Source of the DNA: Eledone cirrhosa
Taxonomy: Eukaryota
Length of the DNA stretch: 64,000 nucleotides
Assembly: GCA_964016885.1 (NCBI GenBank)
Contig: OZ024740.1
Span: 216,132,001 to 216,196,000, forward strand
Direction: 5' to 3'
A program made the position numbers and the translations under genes. The notes under the pieces were generated by a model. The model had not been told where the DNA came from. It saw only the letters and a program-made list of their open reading frames with translations, and made no database searches. Within the stretch, counting starts at the first letter, position 1, and every line of letters begins with the position of its first letter. This document shows, in pieces, positions 28,031 to 47,135 of the stretch.

Positions 28031-28533
28031 TTCAGAGAGAAAAAGAAAAAGTTGGGACATCAGAGTTTGGTAAAAAAAAAAAAAGAATTTAAGAAGGCTT
28101 AGGGTGGCAGGTGAGTAGACTGGGGGCTGAGGTGGTGAGTCCAGGTGTATCATGGGAGTTGTCATGTGTGTATCCAGATGGAATGCATTTCATGGGTGTA
28201 TCATTGATGGAAGTGCATGTGCATGTGTCTGAAATTTTTTTTGTGTATGTGCATGTAAGTTTTCTTTATGAGTATGTGTGTGTACACAGTCTCATCCTTG
28301 CAAGCAGGGAAAAGCGGACGTAAAATGATGATGATGGTGATGATGATGCCACATGTGGGTCTGTGTGCTTTTTGTATTGTTTGTGTGTGCACGTTTACAT
28401 GTATGTGTCTGTGAATCCTGTGTTTTATTATATGTGCATGTGTGTTCACGTACGTATATGTGTGTATGTTTGTGTGGAATTTTTGAGATTTTGAGGAGTG
28501 TGTGTATGTATGCATGTGTGTGTATGTATGTAT

Positions 28534-28990
28534 GTCACTCTTGAGTGCTACTGGTAACATGTAACCCAGTACAACCTGGCGGCGACTAAACTGGCAACCT
28601 CACCAAGTTTACTTGGTGTGGAGGGTGATTTTGGACACCCTGCAGGACAAGAAAAAAAACCTGAGAAAGGGCGGAAGAACTCATAAGAGTCAACGGTAAT
28701 CCAAAAGTGTGTAAATATGTATATACACATGTACATATCTATGTATATGTATATATACATGGGTGCATGTGTATGTATATGCGCAGGGACATAGAAATAG
28801 TCGGGCTGGGCACCCGATCGTGCGGTTAAACCACTGGGAGTGAAGGACCTCTAGCCTTTGTCAGGGCATTCTTCTAGGAGAAGGAAACTCAGGAAACTGG
28901 GATAACTCCGATATAAAACCTGCGGCTCAGTAGTTACCAATAATGTTGATCTTTTCTTCTTTTCGGGGTATAGCTAATGTTGTTCAGAGA
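28534..28990 (+). mobile_element. 5' region of RTE-type element (same family as 23160-23653)
   Basis: Shared GTGCTACTGGTAACATGTA.CCCAGTACAACCTG..CTAAACTGGCAACC and CTAGGAGAAGGAAACTC. Confidence 0.55.
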
Positions 28991-44638: not shown

Positions 44639-44748
44639 ATTTATTAAAATAACAGATTAAAGTTTAAGCAAAGAATCGCTGCTTTCACCCATGACGGGAT
44701 GAAAGCAGCGATTCTTTGCTTAAACTTTAATCTATTATTTTAATAAAT
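44639..44748. repeat. Near-perfect hairpin (~50-bp arms)
   Basis: AGATTAAAGTTTAAGCAAAGAATCGCTGCTTTCA / TGAAAGCAGCGATTCTTTGCTTAAACTTTAATCT. Confidence 0.85.
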
Positions 44749-44874
44749 GTTTGCTCTAGGGTTCTTATATATTTGATATATATTTATCCTTATCGAGCCA
44801 TCTTTGGATTTTAATCTTCACATTTATTATTATTACTATATATCTCTTGGTTGTCCATCGTAAATGATGATAAC

Positions 44875-45473
44875 ATCTTCTTCATTGTTGTTCCCATCTG
44901 CCGTGGGCGCGAAGGTGGCTGTGGAGGCCGATCCTTGACTTGCAGGTCCATCTCCGCAGGGCTTTGGGAGTGCACGCTAAATAAGAAACCTGTGCGGGAA
45001 AGGTTTATAGTGGGAGGGCCAGTGCACAATGGCGGTCCCACTCACTCAGCCACAGAAGCCAGAATCCGGTGGTAAAGAGGACTGTCACGACCAGGGACTT
45101 CCTTGGCTGCAGTGGATGACCATGTCTGTAGTGCCTTGCCGTGCCCTAGCGCTTCATACCACTTGCTGTCGCCGCCTTTGTGACCGTTGGGATAATATTG
45201 TCCTCCTCCACTCACTCCGCAGGGTCCATTCTTCGCATGCAGGAGCAGGCATACCCTATCTAACTCACCAGGGGGTTTCAGACACGTCCGGCAACCTGGT
45301 TCGGCCTGCCAGCCAAGGCGGTTTACCGGGGTGTGGCCGCTGTCACATGCTACAGCTTCTTGGGGCCACAGGTGAGAGCTGAGTGTCAGGTGGGACCCAA
45401 TGCAGGACGAGCTGTCCTGAAAAGGGCATGGCTAGCCCATCCTACAGAGGTACATGCCCCTCCCTAACACCCC
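44875..45473 (-). mobile_element. GC-rich non-autonomous RTE-derived element (5'UTR-like body, short GAA tail)
   Basis: Sharp GC-rich island, no coherent ORF, minus strand ends ..GGGAACAACAATGAAGAAGA; HDV-like fold starts at its first nucleotide. Confidence 0.65.
45294..45473 (-). ncRNA. Candidate HDV-like self-cleaving ribozyme
   Basis: P1 GGGGUG/CACCCC, P2 ACCUG/CAGGU, P3 UGGC/GCCA, P1.1 CC/GG, P4 CCGCC/GGC-A-GG, J4/2 CCGAAC, in the correct nested order. Confidence 0.6.
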
Positions 45474-45617
45474 AGGTATATATACACGCATATACATACA
45501 CATACATATTTACACATTTTTGGATTGCCGTTGACTCTTATGAGTTCTTCCGCCCTTTGTCAGGTCTTGATTTTTGGGCTGCAGGGTGTCCAAAATCACC
45601 CTCCTCACCAAGTAAAC

Positions 45618-45663
<46 letters not shown>

Positions 45664-46030: not shown

Positions 46031-46036
46031 TATATA

Positions 46037-46230
46037 TAGGAAGATAGTCAGGACCCCAACGGCTGAGCTCCAGCCGTTTCGACAGCTATATCCGATCTAG
46101 CTGTCGAGATGGCCGGAGCTCAGCCATTGGGGTCCTGAATCTTTTTCTATTACCCATTCTACTACCCTAAGTATTGAGTACTCTGGTGCGTTATGGTCCA
46201 CCTGGTATCTTACCACACCCTCTTTGTTAT
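46037..46230 (-). mobile_element. Hairpin element (copy of 15900-16070)
   Basis: Reverse-complement homology including ACCAGGTGGACCATAACGCACCAGAGTACTC. Confidence 0.7.
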
Positions 46231-46654
46231 ATATATATATATATATATATAGAAAGAGAGAGAAAACTATATATATATATATGCATGTATACATGTATGT
46301 AGATGTAGGTATGTGTACATTTAAATCTACACCTGAAAATTTGTATAGTTTCTCATGAAATGAAGCATCTTTTCCCACAGAGTGCACTGAGAGGTGAGAG
46401 TAGAACTGCCTGCAAATAATTCCTCATTCTGCTCTCCAGTAATATGCTCTTTAACCAACCTTCATCATCCCACACCACCTCTATTTCTGTTTTCCTTCCA
46501 ACTCCTCCACCTACAACTCATCTCCTACCTCTCTTTTACTTCCTCCTCCCCCACACGCTCGTTCTCTCTCTTTCTTTCCTGTCCCAGTTGCTTTATTTGG
46601 GAAGTCAATGTTTGTAATAAGCAACATTCTACATCCCCCTCCCGTCCCAATATG

Positions 46655-46906
46655 CCAACAACAACAAAACCACCACCGCCGCCACTACTACCACCACCAA
46701 CAACAATACTTCCACCACCAACACCACCACCACCATTATTGTGGCTGCCATTACTACCACCACTACCAACACCACTCCAGCTACGATCACCACCACTACC
46801 ACGACTGCCAACACCCTCCACCATTGGCACCACCACCACCACCATTACCTCCACCACCACCACTACTGCCAACACCCTCCTCAATTACTACCACCACCAC
46901 CAACAC

Positions 46907-46994
<88 letters not shown>

Positions 46995-47135
46995 ACCACC
47001 ACCACCACCACCACCACCACCACCACCACCACCACCACCCAAACCCTCTACAATTACTACCACCACCACCGCCACCACTACTGCCAAAACCCTCTACAAT
47101 TACTACCACCACCACCACTGCAACCACCAGTACCA
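46655..47135. repeat. (ACC)n/(GCC)n compound trinucleotide repeat
   Basis: Directly visible; source of the poly-P/H/R/T/A ORFs. Confidence 0.9.

Follow-up and report, generated by a model that had tools for sequence, protein, structure and literature searches.

An HDV-like ribozyme fold with a hairpin in L3 lies inside a bipartite RTE LINE of Eledone cirrhosa

Introduction

HDV-like ribozymes occur in the non-LTR retrotransposons R2, RTE, Baggins and L1Tc (PMC4908430, PMC6765202, PMC3774820). In the natural examples described, loop L3 of these ribozymes is short and helps to build the HDV active site. A first-pass annotation of a 64,000-nt stretch of Eledone cirrhosa DNA (hereafter the window) read a minus-strand island at 44875-45473 as a SINE-like parasite that begins at such a ribozyme and carries an additional stem-loop in L3. 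The locus raises the question of whether an L3-expanded HDV-like fold exists here, and whether it makes its host element's 5' end.

Results

The element is a retrotransposed copy of a bipartite RTE LINE

The island belongs to a longer unit with the following parts, listed from 5' to 3' on the minus strand.

44844..45618 (-): whole element, an internally deleted, non-autonomous RTE LINE copy truncated at its 5' end, delimited by the ends of homology among copies and by the target-site duplication
45619..45627 (-): 5' copy of the 9-bp target-site duplication, where a TA run ends
45520..45618 (-): 3' half of the head B module, common to other RTE-derived families of the genome
45474..45519 (-): AT-rich spacer within the element, likely an old insertion site; also in a sister family without the HDV-like fold
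44950..45293 (-): remaining RTE 5' UTR up to the internal deletion, from alignment to the full-length copy L032
44882..44949 (-): last RTE ORF codons (C2H2 remnant) and stop, from translation and comparison with a full-length copy
44844..44881 (-): short 3' UTR and (AAG)n-type end
44835..44843 (-): 3' copy of the target-site duplication

Sequence shared among copies exceeds the originally proposed limits on both sides. The 3' end lies at 44844, where CCAAGA(G) is followed by the target-site duplication, about 30 nt beyond the GAA tail at 44875 that had been taken as the terminus. The body of the island had been called non-coding, but 44949-44882 codes for what remains of the RTE ORF's C-terminal C2H2 part (CKSRIGLHSHLRAH). 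The fold region has 544 similar candidates in the 3.0-Gb genome, 40 of which were scored; the complete non-autonomous unit measures about 975 nt, and the window copy is without its first ~97 nt. Copies differ from the column majority by a median of 4.2% (116 copies). One common deletion junction recurs in 51 of 127 records, the deletion of the window copy being larger, and non-simple target-site duplications of at least 7 nt flank 5 of the 12 copies tested, the others having short duplications, none, or TA repeats.

A partner with coding capacity is present in the same genome. The same 5' UTR is followed by an endonuclease (APE) ORF in L014, L015 and L027, and the 4.3-kb copy L032 gives Pfam matches to Exo_endo_phos (scored on L031) and RVT_1; in both long copies read (L031 and L032) the ORF is interrupted by stops and frameshifts. 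The 5' part and the 3' end of the non-autonomous unit match the autonomous LINE with its middle deleted, and the partner comprises an APE endonuclease, RT and a short repeat tail within about 4 kb. Its endonuclease has 925 relatives at E<=1e-20, the named ones coming from snail, sea urchin, coelacanth, lizard, fishes and shrimps. The assignment to the RTE clade is based on element anatomy and on motifs.

The locus is a retrotransposed bipartite RTE LINE copy (5' UTR plus the last ORF codons), of a kind already known. The proposal of a non-autonomous retroelement stands in this form, but that of a SINE-like unit beginning at P1 gives way to a LINE with an upstream head. No Rfam match to a tRNA, 5S or 7SL head was found in the element or in the head of the full copy L010. 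Carriage of the fold by a DNA transposon is ruled out by the target-site duplications at the outer ends and by the ORF-bearing partners.

Further features of the copies and their surroundings were recorded. Directly behind the fold, the 5' UTR of both full-length copies contains a frame of 96 codons without a stop (L031:799-1086 and the matching frame of L032), which may be due to chance. The 5' part is inverted in L013, L050, L084 and L086, which is typical of twin priming. Two long near-perfect hairpins, possibly MITE remnants, flank the element (window 44651-44736 and 46036-46150), and a long low-complexity tract of CCA/CCG trinucleotides occupies window 46630-47130.

Anatomy of the HDV-like fold

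The fold was assigned with a relaxed HDV descriptor, and its parts are as follows.

45467..45473 (-): P1 5' strand, from the descriptor; predicted cleavage 5' of G45473; 45472-45463 alternatively pairs as P1.2
45374..45466 (-): J1/2, a structured domain closed by helix P1.2, whose 3' strand is 45390-45381
45369..45373 (-): P2 5' strand; compensatory change in L122
45365..45367 (-): P3 5' strand; invariant in 4 of 4 aligned sequences
45338..45364 (-): expanded L3, 27 nt; position 20 is C45364 (U in relatives), CC at 45363-45362 (P1.1), G45359 at the G25 position
45339..45356 (-): additional 5-bp hairpin within L3, an insert located 3' of the G25 position and retained by L109 and L122
45328..45337 (-): P3 3' strand (45337-45335) and P1 3' strand (45334-45328); compensatory changes of P1 in L109 and L122
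45305..45327 (-): P1.1 GG, J1.1/4 and the P4 hairpin, with a single C-A mismatch in the window copy; 3 of 5 P4 pairs vary on both sides
45299..45304 (-): J4/2 of C-Y-R-A-A type; C45304, at a position conserved among relatives, is the candidate catalytic C
45294..45298 (-): P2 3' strand, from pair comparison among relatives

Each strand named by the first-pass annotation was recovered at its minus-strand coordinates, and J1/2, which it put at ~95 nt, measures 94 nt. The order of the helices held, but a different register fits better, with P1 of 7 bp (45473-45467 / 45334-45328) and P3 of 3 bp (45367-45365 / 45337-45335). By descriptor the nested double-pseudoknot order is present (P1 of 6-7 bp, P2, P3 of 3 bp, P1.1 and P4), as had been proposed, and both this arrangement and the stem-loop in L3 recur in relatives.

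The active-site positions give a mixed picture. The proposed C in J4/2 is there, and the conserved C and A residues of this segment take the form C-Y-R-A-A in the window, L109, L122, L166, L195 and L105. L3 starts with C, however, whereas U20 is invariant in HDV-like ribozymes (PMC3386971); the U20-G25 pair of L3 is absent from the window copy and present in L109 and L122. The loop also departs from the usual length of about 7 nt, measuring 27 nt with its hairpin.

Across both strands of the 64-kb window, the relaxed descriptor found the fold site and one unrelated site, and it was satisfied by 12 of 500 dinucleotide-shuffled versions of 44875-45473. Taken by itself, the window fold is only modestly above chance; it is judged real because it is conserved in relatives. 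The expectation that standard models would miss it was borne out, since no Rfam HDV family matched the window region or one full copy at E<=10, where the only matches were low-complexity ones of miRNA type.

The L3 hairpin loop (window 45351-45344) and a hairpin loop of head B have in common, in most families, a U-A-R-C-A-U-G pattern with a self-complementary core, from which L145 and L122 deviate; it could be a protein site or a kissing loop. Twister, twister-sister, hammerhead, pistol and hairpin ribozymes fitted neither the HDV-like fold nor head B when compared by eye with consensus features and PMC11620745.

Conservation of the fold and its L3 hairpin in relatives

A protein-led scan yielded 80 metagenome and 8 genome-bin loci, and 65 upstream regions were screened for the fold. 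Two metagenome RTE LINEs, L109 and L122, satisfy the same descriptor including the L3 hairpin, with J1/2 of 100 and 94 nt, respectively. Their P1 strands differ and are still complementary, and they lie beside AT-rich flank, which suggests, from single copies, that the 5' boundary of both elements is at P1. Both retain U20, C21-C22, G25, the P1.1 GG and the J4/2 C, with the L3 insert 3' of G25. The whole L3-hairpin fold is found in three independent families only (the window family, L109 and L122), all with a C-U mismatch at the base of P2. In L122 and L109, where U20 is kept and the P1 strand is free, the L3-hairpin form is predicted from sequence to be an active ribozyme.

Among four aligned sequences, 4 of 19 fold pairs vary on both sides and 98.7% of 76 cells pair, counts that cover few, related sequences and are not a significance test. 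The covariation called for by the first-pass annotation is seen as compensatory changes in P1 (L109, L122), P2 (L122) and P4 (three of five pairs double-sided), but not in every helix: P3 and P1.1 are invariant, with no double-sided change, and the L3 hairpin shows one single-sided and zero double-sided changes in L109 and L122.

Canonical HDV folds with a 7-nt L3 occur in the 5' regions of other relatives, by descriptor in L105, L153, L148 and L160 and by eye in L137 and L166. Their presence in related RTE 5' UTRs identifies the L3-hairpin form as a variant within the ordinary RTE ribozyme lineage. L153 has the identical G-rich P1 strand at its start, directly after a microsatellite, and L105 and L166 have the J1.1/4 pattern and C-Y-R-A-A J4/2 of the L3-hairpin form. 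Because of this identical pattern, the idea that J1.1/4 and J4/2 had decayed in the window family was dropped. P4 is nearly missing from the canonical fold of L137. Relaxed-descriptor matches in L110, L137 and L160 were discounted as fortuitous or out of register.

The sole Rfam match of L109 is to RF02682 (HDV family) over J1.1/4-P4-J4/2, and it is weak (12.3 bits, E 6.1, cut-off 44). A covariance model of the fold, run against 89 sources, recovered beyond its training set only L195 (E 1.2e-5) and, weakly, L108, L145 and L166. L195 has an inverted duplication in place of the L3 region; L108 has, by eye, an A-U-closed variant of the L3 hairpin without the rest of the fold. Pattern scans of viral contigs and prokaryote genomes gave 0 matches to the L3-hairpin fold or head B, and a protein scan of viral contigs gave none. 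Within the window's own genome, a pattern search found 0 instances of a second L109-like family, and L109 used as a DNA query returned only the window family.

Position 20 and P1 pairing in the window family

Position 20 is C in 102 of 120 records of the window family and U in 14. The C/G combination that matches positions 20-25 here is among the inactive ones in antigenomic HDV (PMC3386971). P1 is also predicted to compete with P1.2, a rival helix of 10 bp against 7 bp. In a pseudoknot-free model the predicted pairing of the window copy is 0.17 for P1 and 0.90 for P1.2; the medians over 35 copies are 0.18 and 0.87, and P1 is favoured in 10 of the 35. In L122 and L109, P1 and the P1.2 that closes J1/2 each have a G-rich strand of their own, whereas the window family has a single one. 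Pairing of P1 and P1.2 is predicted at 0.84 and 1.0 in L122; in L109, P1 falls from 0.81 to 0.03 once 15 upstream bases are added to the same pseudoknot-free model. In drz-Agam-2, P1.2 is a rate-enhancing element (PMC4908430). Within the buried copy family the stems are intact, which could reflect recent burial or another function. The buried fold is probably muted in the window family, as position 20 and these pairing models suggest.

Most copies start upstream of the fold

The first-pass annotation had placed the scissile G at the element boundary and had the ribozyme set the 5' end. Shared sequence continues upstream of this G, however, for 145 nt in the window copy and for some 260 nt in full copies; in about 95% of copies the 5' end does not coincide with P1. 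Positions are given here in full-copy numbering, in which G1 of P1 (G45473) is at 262. Exact matches to a 28-mer from within J1/2 number 143 in the genome; among the 70 examined, 46 copies have their 5' end at 1-12, about 260 nt upstream of G1. In 120 records, a set with at least one duplicate and with top similarity matches, which favour copies carrying upstream sequence, 5' ends lie at 1-12 in 76, at 150-161 in 18 and, on inspection, at P1 in 2. The pile at 150-161 (window 45560; one copy counted twice) has unrelated flanks.

A minority of copies begin exactly at the fold. Among 165 copies genome-wide with the P1 20-mer, 8 have foreign sequence directly 5' of P1 and themselves start at G1 or G2; two have common flanks, leaving 7 independent events, and G1 is kept in 7 of the 8. 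Control 20-mers 60-75 nt downstream were compared by start counts; the 28-mer between them has 143 matches. One gave 0 true starts (4 matches, all 1-nt deletions) and the other 1, at an inversion junction assigned by place to L086. G1 is a genuine but minor 5' end. The deletion junction of the head-B master is found in 6 of the 8 G1 starters, with one in the next bin and one without a 3' part nearby, which argues against a separate older lineage. The pile at 150-161 exceeds the G1 excess, and no ribozyme is predicted there. G1 also lies at the foot of the stable P1.2 domain, and exonuclease stalling at this point could be a source of G1 ends.

Head B is a separate conserved module

The first ~197 nt of full copies also head other families of the genome that have no HDV-like fold. 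L210, L219, L220 and L224 have the head and the AT-rich spacer in common and then diverge. Over its first 90 nt, head B folds into a conserved three-way junction and an H-type pseudoknot, a structure that recurs at or close to the 5' ends of five metagenome RTE loci and in which 5 of 23 pairs vary on both sides (8 sequences). The pseudoknot ends in a C-U-A-A-A motif of the same type as J4/2 of the fold. The ~97 nt that the window copy is without include the three-way junction and pseudoknot. Instances of the module are as follows.

L220:1457-1545 (+): head B, full-length family 5' end
L145:1733-1823, L136:128-220, L139:212-306, L178:4-79 and L110:186-260: head B relatives
23656-23568 (-) and 28527-28598 (+) of the window: two further head-B elements, of other families

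A head B 26-mer has 299 exact matches in the genome, and Rfam gave no match to the module. Reading head B as an HDV fold was rejected, since its P1 5' strand would fall outside the element. Our best guess is that it is an internal Pol II start signal. At one locus only (L231/L232, G000:C17:23974139-23974290), four tandem head-B monomers of ~112 nt front one element; the arrangement resembles the promoter monomers known from LINE 5' UTRs and suits a promoter more than a self-cleaving RNA.

Discussion

Based on these data, we hold with moderate confidence that a formerly terminal, L3-expanded ribozyme was buried by 5' capture and is now leaky at most, within a bipartite RTE LINE. The ancestor would have begun at the L3-hairpin ribozyme, with P1 as its front end, and would have inserted into an AT-rich stretch behind the head B of another family, thereby capturing that head. 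A shared head and spacer followed by divergence in other families fits head capture by an element once starting at P1. The chimera would have spread whole because the buried ribozyme had weakened, through the change of U20 to C and a single G-rich strand that prefers P1.2. The 5' end would now be set by head B, probably in the role of an internal Pol II start signal, and the ORF protein of the partner would use target-primed reverse transcription to copy full and deleted RNAs alike. The fold, read from its sequence, likely cuts only a small share of transcripts, and occasional cleavage at G45473 would give the roughly 5% of copies starting there.

The minor G1 end could instead arise around a catalytically dead fold, by nuclease stalling at the base of P1.2, as a truncation hot spot, or through an older lineage. 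C at position 20 in 102 of 120 records, a state inactive in HDV, would suit this, as would the prevalence of P1.2 in pairing prediction and the larger hot spot at 150-161. We nevertheless consider it unlikely: G1 is kept exactly in 7 of 8 starts, against 0 and 1 at the controls, U20 is retained in 14 of 120 copies, and the master's deletion junction in six of the eight speaks against an older lineage. A ribozyme-headed SINE-like element with its 5' end made by cleavage at G45473, as first proposed, would draw on a real fold, on the 8 of 165 copies that start there and on precedents in other systems. The 5'-end counts contradict it for the family as a whole, most copies starting at head B and about 95%, with the window copy, extending upstream of G1; the body, moreover, is RTE UTR and ORF end, and we regard this origin as very improbable.

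The remaining alternatives concern the L3-hairpin form in general. It might be HDV-derived and non-catalytic in all families, kept as a protein-binding or translation-start structure. L3 belongs to the active site (PMC4908430), retroelement HDV-like folds have been proposed to be IRES-like (PMC6765202), and similar elements occur apart from the fold, namely the hairpin of L108 and the loop of head B. Against these stand the retention of U20, C21-C22, G25, the P1.1 GG and the J4/2 C in L109 and L122, the position of the insert 3' of G25, and the covariation of P1 with a strand beside AT-rich flank, so that we think universal loss of catalysis quite unlikely. At the other extreme, the RTE LINEs of many animals might carry an active L3-expanded HDV subclass that models miss, displaced here by head B as a new self-cleaving class that processes the 5' end, with competition between P1 and P1.2 acting as a switch between long and short RNA; this, too, we find rather doubtful.

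Burial and muting of a terminal ribozyme behind a captured head would make the window family a testable case of 5'-end swapping in LINEs. A hairpin behind G25 that is kept across distant RTE families would, if true, mean that the rules of the HDV fold are wider. An L3-hairpin ribozyme would likewise offer a new engineering handle and mean that ribozymes are undercounted genome-wide. As a conserved RNA structure in its own right, head B merits separate study; the bipartite RTE element itself is ordinary. Neither an HDV-like ribozyme with a hairpin in L3 nor head B was found described in the full-text literature searched, a scope that leaves out most subscription journals and Repbase.

Compared with known ribozymes, the fold has the P1-J1/2-P2-P3-L3-P1.1-P4-J4/2 order of the drz-Agam-2 type, and like that type a large structured J1/2 closed by P1.2. 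It resembles Rfam RF02682 (HDV-F-prausnitzii) in the J1.1/4-P4-J4/2 of L109, at a score far below the cut-off and with window family copies unmatched. With the retrotransposon HDV-like ribozymes it shares the J4/2 C and a location in an RTE 5' UTR. It differs from them in that L3 of the L3-hairpin form has 26-28 nt rather than about 7 nt, that the window family mostly has C for U20, and that its fold lies ~260 nt inside the element instead of at the 5' terminus.

The element itself follows the pattern of the bipartite RTE elements Bov-A, RTESINE1/2, WALLSI3 and MAR4_MD, in which the 5' UTR is joined to the LINE 3' end by internal deletion, there is no Pol III head and an autonomous partner exists (PMC5786205). 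Unlike these, the window family has a composite 5' UTR, with a captured head that several families have in common and with a ribozyme fold that is buried. R2 SIDEs (PMC3414825) and the trypanosomatid NARTc/RIME/SIDER (PMC4035085) are likewise internally deleted, non-autonomous elements with an HDV-like ribozyme, and SIDER2 carries two 5' hallmarks in tandem (PMC4035085). In R2 SIDEs and NARTc/RIME/SIDER, however, the ribozyme is terminal and its cleavage has been shown, whereas the window fold is a predicted one, internal to the element and behind an unrelated structure.
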